Virus record (IMG/VR): IMGVR_UViG_2585427792_000017
Direction: 5' to 3' (one strand)
Origin: a virus
Lineage: Duplodnaviria; Heunggongvirae; Uroviricota; Caudoviricetes
Length of the DNA stretch: 7,149 bases
In this document: one piece after another, positions 1-7,149 of the stretch
How positions within the stretch are numbered: the first letter of the stretch is position 1
How the letters are laid out: each line of letters starts with the position of its first letter
Program-made: the position numbers and the translations under genes
Notes under the pieces: model-generated
Told to the model about the DNA's origin: nothing
Seen by the model: the letters and a program-made list of their open reading frames with translations, nothing else
Databases searched by the model: none

Positions 1-840
1 TTCTCTCCACTCGCAACGTAACAGCCACAGTTTGCGTTTCCACCATTCCGCACAGGTCAGGCGAAGGATTGCGCCCGGCAGCAGCTCCGTGTCCGGTTCG
101 TTCCTCCGGTCTTTGTCTGTTGTCAGTGCGTCATAATGTGGAGGCATGGCGTGCAGGTGTAACGCCATGCGGGCCAGCATCTGATACGCCTTCAGCGTTA
201 CATCCATGGTCAGTTCGCCATCGGTCGCGCCAAAGCCATCGCAGAGTTTTTCGAAGGTGCTGCTGAACATCGCCGCCGTCATGGTGGCCAGCGTCTGTAT
301 CTGGTGTTTGTTGAGCTGCGGCAGGTAAAGCAAATCGTCCAGGCGTTCGCGTCCGGCAAGGGAGCGATAACCCGGTGTCAGCCAGCGGTGGTCGGTGCGC
401 TCCAGACGTTCGAATATTTTGCGCAGGTTTCCGCGCGCGTAGCGTTCAGCCTGCCAGCTCTTTTTGCCTTTCTGACGATCGGCTTCCTGTTTTTTGCGCA
501 GGAAGGAGAGGTGGCGAATAAGCGGATCGCGCAGATAGGACGGCAGCAGGCGCAGCGAGGCCATGGCTTCATCCACCGCACCGCGTGCCTGTTTTCTGGC
601 GTCTCCTGCCAGTGTGATGGTTTTGTCCTGTTTTTCCTGTGCGTCCAGGCTTTTATTAATCAGGTTGCCCAGCGGCGTGGCGGAGAACGCCGCATCAGCC
701 ATTTCCTGGCGGCGCTCGTTCTCTACCCGGTAGGCATCCAGCCAGGAGGAAAGCGCGGATTCAGGAGCGGGGATCCCCGTTCCTTCACGCCCCACTGCGT
801 GGCGCGGTTGTTGCCAGTCCCTGATGTACTCTGCCGTCAT
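1..840 (-). CDS. Replication initiation protein gpA-like (rolling-circle initiator), N-terminal 280 codons; partial, ORF runs off the window start
   Basis: Reverse-strand translation from ATG 840..838 is open for 280 codons to position 1 (checked codon by codon): MTAEYIRDWQQPRH...FEKLCDGF...LTCAEWWKRKLWLLRCEWRE. It resembles the N-terminal region of P2 gpA as I recall it, and it is the last gene of the early operon, 6 nt after the stop of the preceding gene. Confidence 0.6.
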   Translation of the reverse strand, partial: MTAEYIRDWQQPRHAVGREGTGIPAPESALSSWLDAYRVENERRQEMADAAFSATPLGNLINKSLDAQEKQDKTITLAGDARKQARGAVDEAMASLRLLPSYLRDPLIRHLSFLRKKQEADRQKGKKSWQAERYARGNLRKIFERLERTDHRWLTPGYRSLAGRERLDDLLYLPQLNKHQIQTLATMTAAMFSSTFEKLCDGFGATDGELTMDVTLKAYQMLARMALHLHAMPPHYDALTTDKDRRNEPDTELLPGAILRLTCAEWWKRKLWLLRCEWRE

Positions 841-846
841 AGTGAT

Positions 847-1212
847 TTACTTCGTCATGCCATTCAGGGTGTCGCGGCAGGCTGTAGCCAGCCGCTGAAT
901 TTCCAGCACGGTGTCTTCTGTGTCGGCATGGCGATGTGTGATGCGGATGCTGTCGGCAATCACATCGACGATTGCAGAGGATGGGCGCTGGTAAATGCCA
1001 ATAACGGACGGGGTGCCACCTTCAATGCGGTAAAGCCTGTAATTTCCCTCGTGGCTGTCAATCATGTAGCGACCATCAATAACAATCTTTCCGTCAGCGA
1101 GCTGCGGTACAGGCAGGGATTTCTGGTACATGTCATAACGATCACGCACGCGAGCGGCAAGATCACGTTCTGTGTTGAGCAGGTATTCAAGAAAGTCGTT
1201 GGCGAGAATCAT
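847..1212 (-). CDS. Hypothetical early-operon protein, 121 aa
   Basis: ORF in track. ATG 1212..1210 preceded by AGAGGA with 8-nt spacing. Stop TAA 849..847 lies 6 nt before the gpA ATG. Confidence 0.6.
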   Translation of the reverse strand: MILANDFLEYLLNTERDLAARVRDRYDMYQKSLPVPQLADGKIVIDGRYMIDSHEGNYRLYRIEGGTPSVIGIYQRPSSAIVDVIADSIRITHRHADTEDTVLEIQRLATACRDTLNGMTK

Positions 1213-1284
1213 TGCGGCAATCCTCTTGTTACAGATGTGCGAAGGCCTCCCGCCGCAAGGTGCAGGAAAGGCCCGGAACAGGAA

Positions 1285-1515
1285 TTAATGGAGTTTGTTT
1301 TGCTGCTGGATGAGCTGTTGAAGCTCGTGCAGATCATCCGCCAGATAGCTGAAAACAGAGGCGGAATAAATGTTTGATAGTGCGTGGCTGCGCTCATGCA
1401 GCATATTGATGTGCATGATTTGCGCGACGCGTGATGCGCGGGAAAGTCTGCGGTTGATTTCAGTCTGGATGTGACGACGCTCCGCGATAGCGCGGTGTGG
1501 TTTGCGGTTTGCCAT
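1285..1515 (-). CDS. Hypothetical early-operon protein, 76 aa
   Basis: ORF in track. ATG 1515..1513 preceded by AAGGGG with 7-nt spacing. The overlapping 205-aa ORF in another frame looks like low-complexity junk. Confidence 0.5.
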   Translation of the reverse strand: MANRKPHRAIAERRHIQTEINRRLSRASRVAQIMHINMLHERSHALSNIYSASVFSYLADDLHELQQLIQQQNKLH

Positions 1516-1577
1516 GGTGTGGCCCCTTGTGTAGTAAGTTGTGAAAACTCACCATCCAGAGCTGCGAAACTGTGGGT

Positions 1578-1653
1578 GGCGAGACGTACGAGGTTCGCAG
1601 TACCGGCTACAAGAGATCCCGGCCCGACCGAAGTCGGCCCCGTACGCCCCGCC
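1578..1653 (-). ncRNA. Putative structured RNA element: 16-bp closing stem enclosing two hairpins, one with a C(UUCG)G tetraloop
   Basis: Arms 1578-1593 and 1638-1653 are inverted repeats. The three non-Watson-Crick positions are A-C on the + strand, which become G-U wobbles on the - strand RNA. Inner hairpins 1602-1623 (one further A-C/G-U position) and 1624-1637 (loop reads UUCG on the - strand). No credible ORF covers this region. Confidence 0.35.
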
Positions 1654-1693
1654 ATAATTCTGACGCGAAAAAAACGTGGCAATACAGTACGCA

Positions 1694-1715
1694 CAAAAAA
1701 ACCGCTGGCGCGGTT
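1694..1715 (-). terminator. Putative intrinsic terminator inside the early operon
   Basis: - strand reads AACCGC-GCCA-GCGGTT (6-bp stem, 4-nt loop) running into a U7 tract (about 1701..1695), 122 nt after the stop of the 99-aa gene. Confidence 0.4.
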
Positions 1716-1837
1716 GTGCGCTTGTGTAGTCAGCAGGCTGCGAAACCCGACACCCGTTTTGTGAGGTGCAGCGGAAATGTAACCTGACTGATTGCGGCAT
1801 GGCAAGCGGTTTTTTTGTGTGTGCATGTTCTGGTTTC

Positions 1838-2938: not shown

Positions 2939-2945
2939 ATGTTGA

Positions 2946-3032
2946 TTATCTTTCTGGGCTGCCCTGGACAGCTTGTCTTGTCTGTGAAACTACTTTCAAT
3001 GCACTGATAATACCTTCTTCTTTTGCGTGCAT
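2946..3032 (-). CDS. Candidate 28-codon leader ORF (MHAKEEGIISALKVVSQTRQAVQGSPER)
   Basis: Below the 60-aa cutoff of the track. ATG 3032..3030 with GGAG 8 nt upstream; TAA 2948..2946 ends 7 nt before the ATG of the SD-poor 104-aa gene. Confidence 0.25.
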   Translation of the reverse strand: MHAKEEGIISALKVVSQTRQAVQGSPER

Positions 3033-3119
3033 TTTTGTATCTCCGTTATTTGCGTGTGCGAATACCTCCGTTAATGCGGATAGTTTTCAGGTTTTCTTAT
3101 TTAATTTGATGTTTTATTT

Positions 3120-3239
3120 GTATCGTTATTCACCAGTGAAAAAACGTTCAATCTTTTTTACTGAATGAATAATTCGCATAATTCCAATGGCGCAGGCCAC
3201 CGAAATAATCAGAACAAGCCATGAGATAAATATACTCAT
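3120..3239 (-). CDS. Candidate 39-aa single-pass membrane peptide (MSIFISWLVLIISVACAIGIMRIIHSVKKIERFFTGE)
   Basis: Below the track cutoff. ATG 3239..3237 overlaps the TGA 3238..3236 of the upstream 80-aa gene (ATGA). About 20 hydrophobic residues followed by a basic tail. Translated by hand from the reverse complement. Confidence 0.35.
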
Positions 3240-4149: not shown

Positions 4150-4359
4150 CTACAGTCTGATGTTTCTTGTAAGTTTAAAAATTACTTCGGCCATAACTTC
4201 ACTAATTACTCCAGTATCCCGGTTGGTCAGTGCCACTTCCCATGCGGCTTTTGCTCGTGTAGGGTCTAGCCGACCTGATTTTTGTTGTGTAATGATGGAA
4301 CGTAAATCGTCATATAGTTCTTTTATGGCTGTTTCTTTTGTCTGTGTGAGGTTATCCAT
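4150..4359 (-). CDS. Hypothetical protein, 69 aa, in the AT-rich island
   Basis: ORF in track. ATG 4359..4357 preceded by AAGGTG with 5-nt spacing. Its start codon overlaps the start codon of the divergent + strand gene by 2 nt. Confidence 0.5.
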   Translation of the reverse strand: MDNLTQTKETAIKELYDDLRSIITQQKSGRLDPTRAKAAWEVALTNRDTGVISEVMAEVIFKLTRNIRL

Positions 4360-4798
4360 GGCAACACCTTCAAATATTGATGTTTTTAATGAAACTGTTG
4401 GTAAAACTTTTGCGTTTCTTTATGAGTCATTTCCCCGAAAAGTAACCATTGATGTTTGTGCTTTAACCGGTGTTTCCGCTCCAACGTTTGAAGAGAAGGA
4501 CCCGGCGGTCAGAAAGCAAAAACATGAAGCTCTTGTTCTTCGTTATTACTCCATTGAGTGGCTTATTGCTGCTGGTTATGTATCTGCTGATGCTGTTCCT
4601 TTTGAAAGTTTCGATAAGGCGGTACTTACGGCTAAAGGACTTGAATTATTGAAACTTGATCCAGAGTCACTTAAGCAATCGCTTGGAGATAAACTTGTCG
4701 ATGCAACCAAGAGTGGGGCGATAGATGCAATAAAAAGCACCGCCTCATCTGCACTTACTACAGGTATCTCCTTTGCTTTTAAACACTTGTTTGGCTAA
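4358..4798 (+). CDS. Hypothetical protein, 146 aa, opposite-strand cargo gene; function unknown
   Basis: The track ORF starts at TTG 4109. The credible start is ATG 4358 (MATPSNIDVF...) with GAGGT 5 nt upstream; stop TAA 4796-4798. AT-rich relative to flanks. C-terminus ends in a hydrophobic tail (TTGISFAFKHLFG). Confidence 0.6.
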   Translation: MATPSNIDVFNETVGKTFAFLYESFPRKVTIDVCALTGVSAPTFEEKDPAVRKQKHEALVLRYYSIEWLIAAGYVSADAVPFESFDKAVLTAKGLELLKLDPESLKQSLGDKLVDATKSGAIDAIKSTASSALTTGISFAFKHLFG

Positions 4799-4902: not shown

Positions 4903-5109
4903 CTACCCAATGAGCCAAATAACAAACGCTATGAGCACCGCGCCAATAGTGGTCGGAAAAAGACCTCTTGTATAGGCGGCGAGGTAATGAACGTTGAGAA
5001 CAATAAAGCGCTCTTTTTGTCCTGTTAGCTTGTTAAGCAGATAAATCGCTATTACACCCACTTCCAGGTACACAAAGCTCAAAATGGCGCTGATGATATT
5101 GCTGGTCAT
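4903..5109 (-). CDS. Small membrane protein, 68 aa, two predicted transmembrane helices
   Basis: C-terminal part of track ORF 4903..5358, taken from ATG 5109..5107, 10 nt after the cox TAA: MTSNIISAILSFVYLEVGVIAIYLL...LFPTTIGAVLIAFVIWLIG. No Shine-Dalgarno, only an A-rich leader. The upstream 83 codons of the track ORF overlap cox in another frame and look non-protein-like. Confidence 0.45.
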   Translation of the reverse strand: MTSNIISAILSFVYLEVGVIAIYLLNKLTGQKERFIVLNVHYLAAYTRGLFPTTIGAVLIAFVIWLIG

Positions 5110-5119
5110 TTTTGTGTGT

Positions 5120-5641
5120 TTAGTTGCCTTCGCTGCTTTTGAGTCGTTCCAGCTTTGAGCTTCTACCCATATAAACCCGTTTTCCGTTAACGGTCTGGCA
5201 GTCTTCTTTGTCGGCTGGAGAGAACTTTCTTTTCTGGCGGTCATACGTCCAGTAACTTTTCCAGTTGTGCCATTCTGGGGGCTCGTGCTCTGGTAGCTCA
5301 TCAGCCAACTTGTCCCACTCTTTGGCGTTAAACCACCATACTCCGTCTGAGTTTTCATCTTCCGGGTTTGTGCGCGTCTTGTGTCCCGGCATTTGACCGC
5401 GATGAATGGCTACGCGCAGTGCAGATTTTGTTAGCCCAATATATGCCGCGCCTTTTTCCAGAGAGCAAAGCCCGGCGATCGGACCATCCAGCCGCAAAGT
5501 CGCTCCTTTTTTGTAGGAACGCTTTTTCTTGTTTTCTTCGTGCTCGTCGTCGTTGGCGGCATCAATGGATCCGCTGAGTGCGTCACTTTCCTGAAGTGGT
5601 TGGTGGTCAGATAACTCTTTATCGGCAATGAAGTCCCGCAT
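5120..5641 (-). CDS. cox: Cox-like excisionase/transcriptional regulator, 173 aa, with N- and C-terminal extensions
   Basis: ATG 5641..5639 with GAGG 7 nt upstream. The core (LEKGAAYIGLTKSALRVAIHRGQMPGHK...DGVWWFNAKEW) resembles the HTH and following region of P2 Cox as I recall it. It is the first gene of the operon divergent from C. Confidence 0.65.
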   Translation of the reverse strand: MRDFIADKELSDHQPLQESDALSGSIDAANDDEHEENKKKRSYKKGATLRLDGPIAGLCSLEKGAAYIGLTKSALRVAIHRGQMPGHKTRTNPEDENSDGVWWFNAKEWDKLADELPEHEPPEWHNWKSYWTYDRQKRKFSPADKEDCQTVNGKRVYMGRSSKLERLKSSEGN

Positions 5642-5734: not shown

Positions 5735-5761
5735 TTAATACTCAAATGGTTATCTTGTCAA
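5735..5761 (-). promoter_or_regulatory. Candidate early promoter Pe (- strand)
   Basis: Perfect -35 TTGACA (reverse complement of 5756-5761) and -10-like TATTAA (reverse complement of 5735-5740). The spacer is only 15 bp, so this is tentative. The -35 overlaps one GGTTATCTT half-site and the palindrome lies just downstream. Confidence 0.3.
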
Positions 5762-6087
5762 TAGACTACGCAAAAAAGTTACGTCAGATACGTAAGGCGG
5801 AAGGGTTAACACAAAAGCAGTTTGCGGATATTACTGGGTTGTCTTTGGCAACCATAAGGAATTACGAATCGGGGCAAAAGAACGCTAGAGCAAAAATCGT
5901 TGAGGCGGTTCTGCAAGTCGATCGCTTTGAAAAATACATGCTGTGGCTAATAAAAGATAAGACGCTACCTGTCGCCGGGCAGATTGCTCCGGCTCTCTCT
6001 CTTGATGGATCTATTCAGTCGGAGGGCGATCAGGTTTCAATCGGTATTACCCAAAAATCACCCCGATCAGGCCGCAATGTTGGCTGA
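5746..6087 (+). CDS. C: Immunity repressor C (P2 C family), 113 aa
   Basis: The track ORF starts at TTG 5692. ATG 5746 (MVILSIDYAKKLRQIRKAEGLTQKQFADITGLSLATIRNYESGQ...GQIAPALS) aligns by eye with P2 C (HTH, YESG, GQIAPAL). GAGAGG lies 11 nt upstream. Confidence 0.75.
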   Translation: MVILSIDYAKKLRQIRKAEGLTQKQFADITGLSLATIRNYESGQKNARAKIVEAVLQVDRFEKYMLWLIKDKTLPVAGQIAPALSLDGSIQSEGDQVSIGITQKSPRSGRNVG

Positions 6088-6156
6088 CTCTACACATTGA
6101 GCGAATTACATATCGCAAGGAGTGTTTAGTTAATTTATCCGTTGGAGGGGCTAATC

Positions 6157-7149
6157 ATGTCGATTAAGCAACTCAAAGACGGACGTTATCAGGTCGATGT
6201 CAGACCGCAGGGGGCGGAAGGAAAGCGGATTCGAAAAATCTTTGCCCTGAAATCAAAGGCTCAGGAGTTTGAGAAGTATGTGTTACAGAACTTTCATGAC
6301 AAGCCATGGCAGGCTAAGCCAGCTGATCAGCGGCGATTATCAGAGCTGCTTGATGCGTGGTGGATGCTTGATGGGCGTAATCAGGCTTACGGGGATAGCT
6401 ACAGGGTTAGGCTAGGGAAGGTTGTTCGTGAAATGGGAGATCCTCGCGCCAGTCAGATGACGCGAAAATTTATGCTTGAATATCGGTCAGAGAAATTACA
6501 GGCCGGATTAATGCCGTCCAGTATTAATCGTGACTTATGCGTACTGTCTACCATGTTCACGGTGCTGATTGAAGCTGAGGTCTTTCACAACGCGAACCCT
6601 GTACGCGGTATACGAAAACTGAAAGTTCAGAACACAGAGATGGCCTTTCTTTCTGATGATGAGATTGAACGGCTTCTTGAGCGACTGGAGGGTGATGCGC
6701 GTCGTGTTGCCATTCTGTGTCTTTCTACTGGTGCCCGATGGAGTGAAGCATCGGAACTACGTGGAGAGCATATCGTTGGCAACCGGGTGACGTTCTTTAA
6801 CACCAAAAACGGAAAATCCCGTTCGGTTCCTGTGGCGGATTCGGTCGTGCCTCTGATTAAAACCCGTCGAACGGGGTTATTGTATCAGGTTGATTATCTG
6901 AAGTTCCGGGAGATTCTTCAGGAGGTGAAACCGGATTTGCCGAAGGGGCAGGCTACGCATGTCATGCGTCATACATTTGCCACACACTTTATGATGAATG
7001 GCGGAAATATTGTTACGTTGCAACGAATCCTGGGGCACGCAACGATTCAGCAAACAATGACGTACGCTCATTTTTCGCCGGACTTTTTACTGGACGCGAT
7101 CAACTTTAATCCGCTGGCTGAAAGTGTCCATAAACTGTCCATCGATTAG
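6157..7149 (+). CDS. int: Tyrosine recombinase, P2-type integrase, 330 aa
   Basis: The track ORF starts at TTG 6142. ATG 6157 has GGAGG 8 nt upstream. MSIKQLKDGRYQVDVRPQG..., TGARWSE, HVMRHTFATHF and TMTYAHF match the P2 Int pattern including the catalytic R, H-x-x-R and Y. Stop TAG 7147-7149. Confidence 0.9.
   Translation: MSIKQLKDGRYQVDVRPQGAEGKRIRKIFALKSKAQEFEKYVLQNFHDKPWQAKPADQRRLSELLDAWWMLDGRNQAYGDSYRVRLGKVVREMGDPRASQMTRKFMLEYRSEKLQAGLMPSSINRDLCVLSTMFTVLIEAEVFHNANPVRGIRKLKVQNTEMAFLSDDEIERLLERLEGDARRVAILCLSTGARWSEASELRGEHIVGNRVTFFNTKNGKSRSVPVADSVVPLIKTRRTGLLYQVDYLKFREILQEVKPDLPKGQATHVMRHTFATHFMMNGGNIVTLQRILGHATIQQTMTYAHFSPDFLLDAINFNPLAESVHKLSID

Follow-up and report, generated by a model that had tools for sequence, protein, structure and literature searches.

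The 322-bp gap between the stop of a 99-aa gene (1838) and the ATG of a 76-aa gene (1515) holds, with a probability that we put at about three in four, an RNA-based immunity cassette that is self-contained and of the P4/P1 type. The window, i.e. the whole 7,149-nucleotide stretch of viral DNA analysed here, comes from a P88-like (Xuanwuvirus) P2-type prophage, in whose early operon the cassette lies, directly upstream of an epsilon homologue, a 121-aa gene and the replication gene gpA. Two tandem small RNAs, IsrK and the C4 antisense RNA, make up the cassette; jointly they probably control access to the anti-repressor gene and the replication gene, in steps that we infer by analogy with P1 c4, P4 CI and Gifsy-1 IsrK. 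The features are the following.

1776..1816, minus strand: predicted IsrK promoter (-35 TTGCCA at 1805-1800, -10 TACATT at 1781-1776, spacer 18 nt; promoter scan)
1816-1810, minus strand: A7 tract resembling an UP element, at about -46 to -40
1695..1769, minus strand: IsrK sRNA (P4 seqA leader; Rfam RF01394)
1744-1738, minus strand: b1, loop of IsrK hairpin 2, TTCGCAG
1729-1721, minus strand: a1, single-stranded in IsrK, CTACACAAG
1715-1700 (stem) with U-run to 1695, minus strand: IsrK intrinsic terminator (terminator scan)
1572..1659, minus strand: C4 antisense RNA, homologue of P4 CI and P1 c4 (Rfam RF01695)
1577-1593 with 1638-1654, minus strand: closing stem of C4 (RNAfold)
1624-1637, minus strand: C4 hairpin 1, with the UUCG loop (RNAfold)
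1602-1623, minus strand: C4 hairpin 2, with the a' loop GAUCUCUUGUAG at 1618-1607
1601-1594, minus strand: b' junction of C4, ACUGCGAA
1562..1568, minus strand: b2 target site, UUCGCAG, 3 nt past the C4 3' end, 7 bp with b'
1523..1534, minus strand: a2 target site, CUACACAAGGGG, overlapping the Shine-Dalgarno AAGGGG (1528-1523), 7 nt before the 76-aa ATG
1209..1826, minus strand: 205-codon leader ORF through IsrK, C4 and b2/a2, with an ATGA overlap with the 121-aa gene
1285..1515, minus strand: 76-aa gene, homologue of the P4 epsilon helper-derepression (anti-repressor) gene (Pfam PF25738 'Derepression')
847..1212, minus strand: 121-aa gene (PHROG 3237), its start overlapping the leader ORF stop
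1..840, minus strand: gpA (replication gene A, replication endonuclease), 5' part, 6 nt downstream of the 121-aa gene

Two tandem RNAs in the gap

The gap matches two Rfam families over their full length: IsrK (RF01394, model positions 1-77 of 77) at 1695-1769(-) with 61.9 bits, the gathering score being 50, and C4 antisense RNA (RF01695, model positions 1-87 of 87) at 1572-1659(-) with 81.1 bits, the gathering score being 45. C4 lies 35 nt downstream of IsrK. Against R2, a model of our own, IsrK scores 88.6 bits. The original prediction regarded the gap as non-coding and all of its ORFs as junk. Two RNA genes do lie there, but a purely non-coding gap is probably wrong, given the 205-codon minus-strand ORF (1826-1209) that spans it.

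IsrK comprises, in this order, hairpin 1, hairpin 2, the single-stranded a1 and the intrinsic terminator, whose hairpin (loop GCCA) and U-run had been noticed before on the same strand. The fold is backed by covariation (55 distinct sequences), and IsrK alone is thermodynamically ordinary (z = -0.4). The predicted start of the RNA is G1769, and the -10 hexamer ends 7 nt before it. The -35, the -10 and the A7 tract are invariant in 12 P2-like modules with four different upstream gene contexts, and 52 distinct modules, among them the P_LE region of P4, have a -35/-10 pair equally far ahead of IsrK; the predicted sigma-70 promoter of IsrK is conserved across contexts and across the family. The hairpin plus U7, which had been proposed to be a plain attenuator of the operon, is not simply that, because it is the terminator of IsrK, an RNA with its own conserved promoter within the gap.

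In the MFE fold of the whole gap, an A7CCGC stretch (about 1816-1806) pairs with the GCGGU7 half of the terminator. This stretch, which coincides with the UP-like/-35 region of the predicted IsrK promoter, does not vary and so offers no covariation by which the pairing could be judged. Such an anti-terminator would form only in transcripts from the early promoter, and it is without comparative support.

The three-way structure proposed for the downstream part of the gap is recovered by RNAfold within 1572-1659(-), with a closing stem of 17 bp (1577-1593 with 1638-1654) instead of 16 and with both inner hairpins, 1624-1637 (C-UUCG-G loop) and 1602-1623, as described. All four of the non-Watson-Crick pairs (1649/1582, 1647/1584, 1640/1591 and 1623/1602) are indeed G-U on the minus strand. 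This strand folds at -47.0 kcal/mol (z = -4.18, 0 of 200 shuffles as stable, MFE identical to the centroid), whereas the plus strand reaches -30.9 kcal/mol (z = -1.14, 25 of 200 shuffles as stable), in agreement with the claim of a strand-specific RNA structure. Among 60 distinct homologues, 99.5% of the cells are paired and 19 of 27 C4 pairs are altered on both sides, shuffled and slid controls being nowhere near these values; as a caveat, the alignment behind these figures was itself made to fit the model, and the search pattern that retrieved the loci holds hairpin 2 and the UUCG loop constant. The earlier observation is thus confirmed, and its interpretation is in part supported. RNAs of the C4 family are expected to be cut from a longer transcript to a stable RNA of ~77-88 nt, as by RNase P in P1 and P4.

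Target sites and the chimeric a' loop

The exposed a' and b' segments of the c4 antisense RNA reportedly target a2 and b2, which lie at the ribosome-binding site of the gene that opens an anti-repressor operon, and heteroimmune variants are said to differ in these two segments, both points being ascribed to work of Citron & Schuster in 1990. Sites of this kind are found in the window on both sides of C4, a putative antisense RNA acting in trans and in cis, and b' can form 7 bp with b1 and 7 bp with b2. In 58 of 59 modules, C4 is followed at a distance of 0-6 nt by a b2 site, which co-varies with b'. The a2 site falls on the Shine-Dalgarno in all 59, with the ATG 8-10 nt further on, and the cognate a'-a2 helix measures 7-12 bp.

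The longest helix was compared between cognate and non-cognate partners in these 59 distinct modules. Cognate helices are longer for every pair: 8.5 vs 4.6 bp for a'-a1, 6.9 vs 3.7 bp for b'-b1, 9.7 vs 6.6 bp for a'-a2 and 7.0 vs 5.4 bp for b'-b2. In the 12 P2-like modules, variation is confined to six patches (a', b', a1, b1, a2 and b2); no other part of the cassette is hypervariable, and the six co-vary among phages. This covariation supports antisense control of the anti-repressor by C4, with IsrK as a putative target mimic. The Rfam family c4-a1b1 (RF03163) matches 1730-1782(-) at 19.9 bits (E = 0.011), below its gathering score of 46.7, yet the a1/b1 complementarity is present; the same family scores 48.1 bits in Gifsy-1.

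The a' loop of the window is a chimera and matches its own a-sites only partly. The a'-a1 helix has 5 bp (-5.3 kcal/mol), compared with 9 bp (-14.4 kcal/mol) in the closest relative, and because the loop is chimeric the a'-a2 helix is also weak, with 8 bp (ACAAGGGG, including two G-U; -9.1 kcal/mol) against 11 bp (-13.7 kcal/mol) in the matched closest relative. The three a' positions concerned are 1612, 1613 and 1617, the matched a' sequence being GTTCTTGTGTAG, and the best complete E. coli genome differs from the window at exactly these three. The C4 of the window fully fits the sites of another natural type (a1/a2 CTACAAGAG, loci L128-L144). The linked pattern of a' (GATCTCTTGTAG) and a2 (CTACACAAGGGG) had no match in viral contigs, metagenome contigs or species-representative genomes. 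Since a' fits its own a1 and a2 poorly, C4 control may be weakened or altered in the window.

Downstream genes, leader ORF and possible modes of control

The 76-aa protein matches Pfam PF25738 'Derepression' at 32.5 bits (gathering score 27) and P4 epsilon in BLASTP (29% identity over 66 aa, E = 4e-9), and its relatives are named 'derepression protein' in their source records. An anti-repressor-type gene follows C4 everywhere sampled, be it Rha, Bro-N, P22 anti-repressor or ORF6N, and it is epsilon-like in the window. The 76-aa gene would be the first gene under C4 control and the immediate target, with an indirect effect on gpA. The original prediction, which proposed a small RNA, a processing site or control of gpA expression, pointed in the right direction. 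The 121-aa protein has no Pfam or NCBIfam match and belongs in PHROGs to a family of unknown function; it was also considered as a homologue of P4 orf151 or orf106, and no homology was found. The gpA product matches Pfam Phage_GPA at 82 bits, and its relatives are annotated as replication endonuclease.

The leader ORF crosses the epsilon-like gene in the +1 frame of that gene. Its ATG (1826) lies 11 nt past the 99-aa stop and upstream of the IsrK start, and this position, before IsrK and <=12 nt from the preceding stop, recurs in three different contexts. A conserved in-frame AUG is found at the 5' edge of C4 (1655-1653), from which the ORF has 148 codons. The translation scores 25.7 bits against Pfam PF10554 Phage_ASH, just under the gathering score of 26 (24.5 bits for the gap-internal part), compared with 59.7 bits for the CI-overlapping ORF of P4. 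All of about 25 P2-like variants keep the leader ORF open, with a poorly conserved C-terminal half; one frame runs without stops across IsrK-C4 in 42 of 56 modules, and of 71 modules 11 have the ORF stopping inside C4 and 6 lack the AUG. When the codons of the epsilon-like gene are shuffled synonymously, between 5% and 65% of the trials for a given variant (typically 20-50%) leave the +1 frame open, so the open +1 frame alone is weak evidence. Translation of the leader ORF is putative in this phage.

The tandem has been given other names elsewhere: seqA/CI in P4, c4 in P1/P7 and IsrK/STnc1160 in Gifsy-1. The P4 immunity region reads P_LE - seqA - CI RNA - seqC - eta/kil - epsilon - alpha, and both Rfam families match there (C4 74.9 bits, isrK 60.8 bits). 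As in P4, the two RNAs of the window stand in the same order with a promoter directly upstream; seqA-, CI- and seqC-like elements precede the replication genes in that order; complementary b/a sites flank the antisense RNA on both sides; an ORF runs through both RNAs (P4 eta is in the same frame and is reported to be translated); and an epsilon homologue and then a replication gene follow. According to passages on the P4 mechanism in PMC4825925, PMC3632133 and PMC10111431, CI pairs with seqA and seqC, which leads to premature termination and leaves the replication genes unexpressed, and IsrK is a structural homologue of seqA (PMC4825925); the phrase 'IsrK-C4 immunity system of P4' is from PMC3632133. 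Unlike the satellite P4, the host of the window is a complete phage of the P2 type, which has a Cox and a C repressor of its own, the latter encoded at window 5746-6087. The spacer between IsrK and C4 is 35 nt in the window vs 107 nt in P4; the epsilon-like gene comes directly after C4 and out of frame with the leader ORF, whereas in P4 CI is followed first by kil/eta, in frame, and further on by epsilon; gpA stands as replication gene in place of the alpha primase; and the a/b specificity differs.

The layout also resembles Gifsy-1 isrK - orf45/STnc1160 - anrP (Hershko-Shalev et al. 2016, PMC4825925), where an IsrK with its own promoter and leaky terminator is followed by a C4-family element and an anti-repressor gene, and where translation from a conserved AUG, situated at the 5' edge of C4, yields an ORF whose end overlaps the downstream gene by AUGA. 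That ORF has 45 codons, compared with 148 from AUG 1655 (205 from ATG 1826) in the window, and it couples to the anti-repressor, whereas the window ORF runs across the anti-repressor gene in a different frame and would be coupled to the gene after it. The host of the Gifsy-1 system is a lambdoid phage, and the read-out is the Q-like antiterminator AntQ. The short IsrK of Gifsy-1 activates translation of the downstream ORF and of the anti-repressor; Hfq binding and trans activation of translation of the read-through mRNA are shown for Gifsy-1 only (PMC4825925). In P1/P7, c4, from which the family RF01695 was defined, targets ant mRNA (PMC12197685); in immI (c4 - icd - ant), compared here by description, icd/ant stands downstream in place of the epsilon-like gene. 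Lambdoid Stx phages carry IsrK-C4 tandems with 68-72% nucleotide identity to the window over both RNAs (LC710660.1 annotates an 'isrK Hfq binding RNA' beside a 'C4 antisense RNA') and likewise have b2/a2 at the ribosome-binding site; unlike the window, they have a Rha/Bro-type anti-repressor downstream, fused in frame with the leader ORF.

On these precedents, most transcripts from the IsrK promoter would end at the terminator and give an IsrK RNA of roughly 75 nt. C4 would be contained in read-through and early-promoter transcripts and be excised from them as a stable RNA, which would pair with b2/a2 and keep ribosomes off the epsilon-like gene. Left untranslated, the mRNA would then be subject to premature (Rho-type) termination, and for this reason the 121-aa gene and gpA would also stay low. 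The target mimics in IsrK may sequester a'/b' in cis or titrate C4 in trans, which would turn expression on. The cassette would thus act as a second, RNA-based lock on the anti-repressor and replication genes, with its specificity set by the a/b sequences. An IsrK-like element lies 0-110 nt upstream and on the same strand for 68 of 78 C4 matches. The precedents differ in read-out, with translation block in P1, termination in P4 and activation by IsrK in Gifsy-1, and the sequence does not single out one of them.

Control could lie in termination only, as in P4: C4 would pair on the nascent transcript with the IsrK-like element and b2/a2, transcription would end before the 121-aa gene and gpA, and translation of the epsilon-like gene would be secondary. 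This version, which comes nearest to the gpA attenuator proposed originally, is possible but not our preference. The order IsrK-C4-epsilon-like-...-replication gene mirrors seqA-CI-...-epsilon-...-alpha, the strong IsrK terminator separates the early genes from gpA, and passages in PMC4825925 describe CI as acting through premature termination, with the replication genes not expressed. However, the position of a2 exactly on the Shine-Dalgarno in all 59 modules is a hallmark of translational control, from which termination may just follow, and a scan of 1200-2200 shows no terminator-like site between the epsilon-like gene and gpA. A Gifsy-1-like mode, which we consider rather unlikely, would make the C4 element mainly an mRNA leader: IsrK would pair with the C4 region in cis and keep the read-through transcript inactive, short IsrK in trans would open the leader for translation of the ORF from AUG 1655-1653 with coupling to the downstream gene(s), and free C4 antisense RNA would be dispensable. 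The ORF orf45 starts exactly at the conserved AUG (C4 positions 5-7) and ends with AUGA on the anti-repressor gene, its translation and coupling have been demonstrated experimentally (PMC4825925), and the window has the equivalent AUG, in frame with the ORF that ends in ATGA on the 121-aa gene. The covariation of b2/a2 with a'/b' is unneeded in such a cis-only model, though, stable processed species are reported from the region (STnc1160; CI in P4), and the modules whose ORF stops within C4 (11/71) or that lack the AUG (6) do not fit it.

It is very improbable that the region is instead a protein-coding 'Ash family protein' gene with incidental RNA folds. Frame 1826-1209 does match Phage_ASH, some RefSeq/GenBank records carry 'ash family protein' here, and the IsrK-C4 frame is stop-free in most modules (42/56); the Pfam score nevertheless stays under the gathering score, the C-terminal half of the protein is poorly conserved, and an open +1 frame on the epsilon-like gene, with P about 0.2-0.5 for each variant, is only mildly unlikely. 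Numerous base-pair changes are compensatory, among them G-U intermediates confined to a single strand; the hypervariable patches vary together as partners in RNA duplexes and not as codons; and distant modules keep the RNA while the ORF is broken. Another role, in competition between elements, is doubtful as a replacement for self-regulation: the C4 of the prophage would act in trans on incoming phages or satellites with matching a/b, as superinfection immunity or as a defence against satellites. For the IsrK-C4 of prophages, a role in defence has been proposed (PMC3632133), the a/b sequences are hypervariable and reassorting, with 10 (a',b') combinations in the P2-like group alone, and the window C4 fits the L128-L144 type better than its own sites. 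Yet no (a',b') pair in the sample is common to P2-like and P4-like or lambdoid modules, and the default is self-control, because C4 fits its own sites in nearly all modules; the two roles are not exclusive.

Within the preferred reading of an RNA immunity cassette, the 205-codon ORF might serve as an eta-like bypass, combined with a chimeric a' that aims C4 at a rival type and loosens control of the phage's own anti-repressor; we regard this combination as speculative. ATG 1826 would be present only in transcripts from the upstream early promoter, on which ribosomes would cross the IsrK terminator, C4, b2/a2 and the epsilon-like gene, suppressing termination and C4 action, and ATGA coupling would then pass translation to the 121-aa gene and gpA.

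Distribution and implications

The cassette is present in 1153 of 5426 complete E. coli genomes, and the tandem IsrK-C4 is also found in P4, Gifsy-1 and about 110 lambdoid Stx phages. Generality among P2-type phages was considered and rejected, as models R1 and R2, with filters off, give no match in the regulatory/early regions of P2 and 186. Cross-immunity with P4-like satellites was likewise rejected, since no (a',b') pair is shared in the sample. Our literature search returned no description of IsrK/C4 in P2-like (Peduoviridae) phages. Both RNAs are already catalogued in Rfam, and the basic picture is unchanged, since P1, P4 and Gifsy-1 already provide examples of this class of mechanism; the host phage is little described.

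In RefSeq the cassette is left blank or labelled 'ash family protein', and a widespread RNA regulator of an anti-repressor and a replication gene is thus invisible in standard annotation. A helper-type phage and the satellite P4 share a homologous immunity-RNA block together with an epsilon gene, which bears on the origins of satellite functions and affects pipelines that detect P4-like elements by the Ash/epsilon Pfam profile (PMC8628076). In their a/b sequences, which are hypervariable and reassort, these phages offer a natural collection of orthogonal pairs of antisense and target. If the bypass operates, the replication genes would be RNA-locked in the lysogen and freely expressed once the early promoter is derepressed; with the chimeric a', C4 would in addition be aimed at a rival specificity type, while control of the phage's own anti-repressor would be loosened.

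The gap and its surroundings in a P2-type prophage

The window covers the regulatory and early part of a P2-type prophage, in which an integrase and an HTH repressor on the plus strand are opposed to an early operon on the minus strand. The closest phages are Xuanwuvirus P88 and its relatives, which share 93-98% identity across 1200-2150 and have an identical gene order.

6142-7149 (+): integrase
5746-6087 (+): HTH repressor
5120-5641 (-): Cox-family gene, first gene of the early operon
1516-1837: gap of 322 bp between the 99-aa Ead/Ea22-like gene and the 76-aa gene
1-840 (-): 5' part of replication gene A (gpA), last gene of the early operon in the window

Between the Cox-family gene and the remaining early operon lie a plus-strand ORF (4359-4798) and a small hydrophobic minus-strand ORF (4903-5112) without a Pfam match. 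Other genes occupy this position in relatives (L001, L002), so it is probably a cargo hotspot. At about 2939-3036 (-), relatives encode a 136-aa protein (MHAKEEGII..., compared with L001 4425-4835); its 28 N-terminal codons are found in the window out of frame, with a TAA stop leading to a 104-aa ORF (2624-2938). This looks like a frameshift, and explains most of the second large ORF-free stretch of the operon, 2939-3125.

C4 and IsrK RNAs, the predicted IsrK promoter and the gene that follows

Exactly two Rfam families match at the gathering threshold, both full length and on the minus strand. The three-way structure that the original prediction described from the sequence is therefore a C4 RNA, and the terminator hairpin with U7 is the 3' end of IsrK.

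1695-1769 (-): IsrK (RF01394), 61.9 bits, gathering score 50
1572-1659 (-): C4 antisense RNA (RF01695), 81.1 bits, gathering score 45
1577-1593 with 1638-1654 (-): C4 closing stem, 17 bp (RNAfold)
1624-1637 (-): C4 hairpin with the C(UUCG)G loop (RNAfold)
1602-1623 (-): C4 second hairpin (RNAfold)

The predicted terminator is present on the minus strand, with its stem at 1715-1700 and a U-run that extends to 1695. RNAfold recovers the three-way junction in 1572-1659 (-), with the C(UUCG)G tetraloop; the closing stem is 17 bp long instead of the 16 bp first proposed. All four non-Watson-Crick pairs are G-U on the minus strand, and the strand specificity that they implied is borne out by folding: the minus strand reaches -47.0 kcal/mol (z = -4.18, with none of 200 dinucleotide shuffles equally stable) vs -30.9 kcal/mol for the plus strand of the same segment (z = -1.14). 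Compensatory changes back both the C4 and the IsrK fold, in alignments that were fitted to models and with hairpin 2 fixed by the sampling pattern.

A promoter scan returned TTGCCA-18-TACATT at 1805-1776, with a predicted start at G1769 that coincides with the 5' end of the IsrK match. In 12 P2-like modules (tandem IsrK and C4 loci) with four different upstream genes, conservation sets in sharply just before this promoter; neither the -35 nor the -10 hexamer varies, and nor does an A7 tract (about -46 to -40). A -35/-10 pair also stands at this distance in 52 distinct modules drawn from a wide range of phages, among them P4 (P_LE region). Just upstream of the -35, A7CCGC at 1806-1816 (-) can base-pair with the GCGGU7 half of the terminator (1695-1712 (-)), and the two do so in the minimum free energy fold of the whole gap. 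A7CCGC could be an anti-terminator for transcripts arriving from upstream, or merely an UP-like A-tract; it is invariant, hence this pairing carries no covariation signal.

The 76-aa gene after C4 (1285-1515 (-)) matches the Pfam 'Derepression protein family' above the gathering score and aligns from its N-terminus, over 66 residues, with epsilon, the protein by which P4 achieves helper derepression (29% identity, E = 4e-9); relatives of the 76-aa ORF are named 'derepression protein' in databases. The gene directly behind C4 in other modules encodes Rha, Bro-N, a P22-type anti-repressor or ORF6N. In the modules sampled, C4 upstream of an anti-repressor is thus the rule, the window's putative anti-repressor being of the epsilon type.

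Antisense and target pairing across modules

Using a loose C4 pattern, 120 viral contigs were retrieved. Covariance models for C4 and IsrK, built from six seeds, were searched against the window and 99 loci and gave 78 C4 and 68 IsrK matches; for 68 of the 78 C4 matches, an IsrK match precedes C4 by 0-110 nt on the same strand. Two exposed C4 segments, a' and b', have partner sites in IsrK (a1, b1) and after C4 (a2, b2). In the window these are:

1744-1738 (-): b1
1729-1721 (-): a1
1618-1607 (-): a'
1601-1594 (-): b'
1568-1562 (-): b2
1534-1523 (-): a2 and the Shine-Dalgarno sequence

In 59 distinct modules, the longest helix is longer between cognate than between non-cognate partners for every pair, and an ATG follows a2 by 8-10 nt.

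Longest helix with cognate and non-cognate partners in 59 distinct modules
a' (C4 hairpin-2 loop) with a1 (in an unpaired segment of IsrK): 8.5 bp vs 4.6 bp
b' (C4 junction) with b1 (IsrK hairpin-2 loop): 6.9 bp vs 3.7 bp
b' with b2 (0-6 nt past the end of C4): 7.0 bp vs 5.4 bp
a' with a2 (some 35 nt downstream of C4, covering the Shine-Dalgarno sequence): 9.7 bp vs 6.6 bp

The a and b sequences vary widely among modules, giving dozens of specificities, and partners change jointly; nearly all variable positions of the 12 P2-like modules fall within b1, a1, a', b', b2 and a2. The a and b determinants also reassort. Some contigs (L032, L033, L076) carry two modules of differing specificity a few kb apart, and in L036 and one L076 module b' is unmatched to its own b1, which suggests that reassortment is frequent.

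The window's own copy, hereafter the cassette, is chimeric in this respect. Its a' loop (1607-1618) is GATCTCTTGTAG, one natural specificity type, and both its a1 and a2 cores are CTACACAAG, which belong to another. All 17 viral contigs with the window's a' loop have a1/a2 of CTACAAGAG, a perfect match, and the partner of the window's a1/a2 elsewhere is a' GTTCTTGTGTAG (L070, E. coli AR_0013); the loci compared for a' types were L070, L128-L144 and L145. Among complete E. coli genomes, the best match departs from the window gap at three positions only (1612, 1613, 1617), all in a', and the chimeric combination is absent from every collection searched. The predicted a'-a1 duplex weakens from -14.4 to -5.3 kcal/mol and the a'-a2 duplex from -13.7 to -9.1 kcal/mol; the residual a'-a2 helix, in an 8-bp register, still covers the Shine-Dalgarno sequence, and b pairing is intact. 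By its sequence, the chimera looks like the product of short-patch recombination between two specificity types. It could mean weaker self-control, retargeted immunity, or have no effect.

A reading frame through the RNAs, and the proposed mechanism

The view that the ORFs of the gap are junk has to be qualified for one of 205 codons (1209-1826 (-)) that has counterparts in P4 eta and Gifsy-1 orf45. Its ATG (1826) lies ahead of the IsrK start, and the stop codon of the 99-aa gene precedes that ATG by 11 nt. From there the ORF traverses IsrK, its terminator, C4 and b2/a2, then reads across all of the epsilon-like gene in the +1 frame and overlaps the start of the 121-aa gene (847-1212 (-)) by ATGA. 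Its first 100 residues score 25.7 bits against Pfam Phage_ASH, slightly under the gathering score of 26, and it accounts for the 'ash family protein' label in some annotations.

In P4 the counterpart frame is eta, with kil nested in it; eta translation from a late promoter farther upstream, in coupling with the gene before it, reportedly prevents CI/seqA-dependent termination (PMC10111431). The orf45 published for Gifsy-1 (first AUG at nt 107) is the very ORF that opens with a conserved AUG at C4 positions 5-7 and overlaps anrP at its end by AUGA; its translation and coupling have been demonstrated experimentally (PMC4825925). The window has the conserved AUG too, at 1655-1653 in the frame of the 205-codon ORF. 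Of 71 distinct C4 sequences, 65 have this AUG. The fate of the ORF varies: 29 modules have it fused in frame with the gene that follows, in 21 it overruns that gene, in 4 it adjoins it and in 11 it ends inside C4, which makes the RNA universal and the ORF lineage-specific. The ORF is open in about 25 P2-like variants; since its C-terminal half is poorly conserved and synonymous shuffles make its openness only mildly improbable, we keep a translated regulatory leader as a rather doubtful hypothesis and not as a finding.

In P4 (L007 2669-3085, 2389-2676), Phage_ASH (PF10554) matches the ORF overlapping CI RNA, the old 'cI gene product' in the eta frame, and the window's epsilon homologue matches PF25738 (Derepression). 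A published scheme for detecting P4 satellites uses PF10554 as its 'epsilon' marker (PMC8628076); this marker could also catch the IsrK/C4 regions of P2-like and lambdoid prophages.

The class of element and its mechanism are already known. P4 has a C4 match at the CI RNA position and an isrK match in the P_LE leader, followed by epsilon, orf151, orf106 and the alpha primase. Gifsy-1 has isrK, C4 (69 bits) and the Rfam family 'c4-a1b1, a1, b1 targets of C4'; IsrK, its leaky terminator, orf45/STnc1160 and the anti-repressor AnrP were described there by Hershko-Shalev et al. 2016, who liken these elements to P4 seqA/CI (PMC4825925). The IsrK and C4 pair is also found, at 68-72% identity, in some 110 lambdoid Stx phages, and one of their records annotates the two RNAs next to each other. 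The cassette has the tested defining features of the C4 family, the IsrK family and the P4-type arrangement, and scores below threshold for c4-a1b1 and Phage_ASH. In the literature we found no P2-like helper phage described as carrying it, along with an epsilon homologue, ahead of gpA; it is present, unannotated, in 1153 of 5426 complete E. coli genomes.

Taking the cassette architecture and the a/b co-variation, both established here, we infer the most likely mechanism by analogy with these systems. The IsrK promoter would fire and the terminator would halt most transcripts, yielding IsrK; C4 would be contained in read-through and early-promoter transcripts and processed to a stable RNA. C4 would then pair with b2/a2 and occlude the ribosome-binding site of the epsilon-like gene, a block that, via polarity, would hold the 121-aa gene and gpA low. 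IsrK, with its target copies, would sequester or titrate a'/b' and relieve the block. The main read-out may be translational, as in P1; it may also lie in termination, as in P4, where CI pairing with seqA and seqC leads to premature termination and the replication genes are not expressed (PMC4825925), or in activation by IsrK, as in Gifsy-1.

The cassette is missing from the regulatory and early regions of P2 and 186, which marks it as an accessory module within the P88-like lineage. By the same analogy, this lineage would thus have an RNA lock besides the C repressor.
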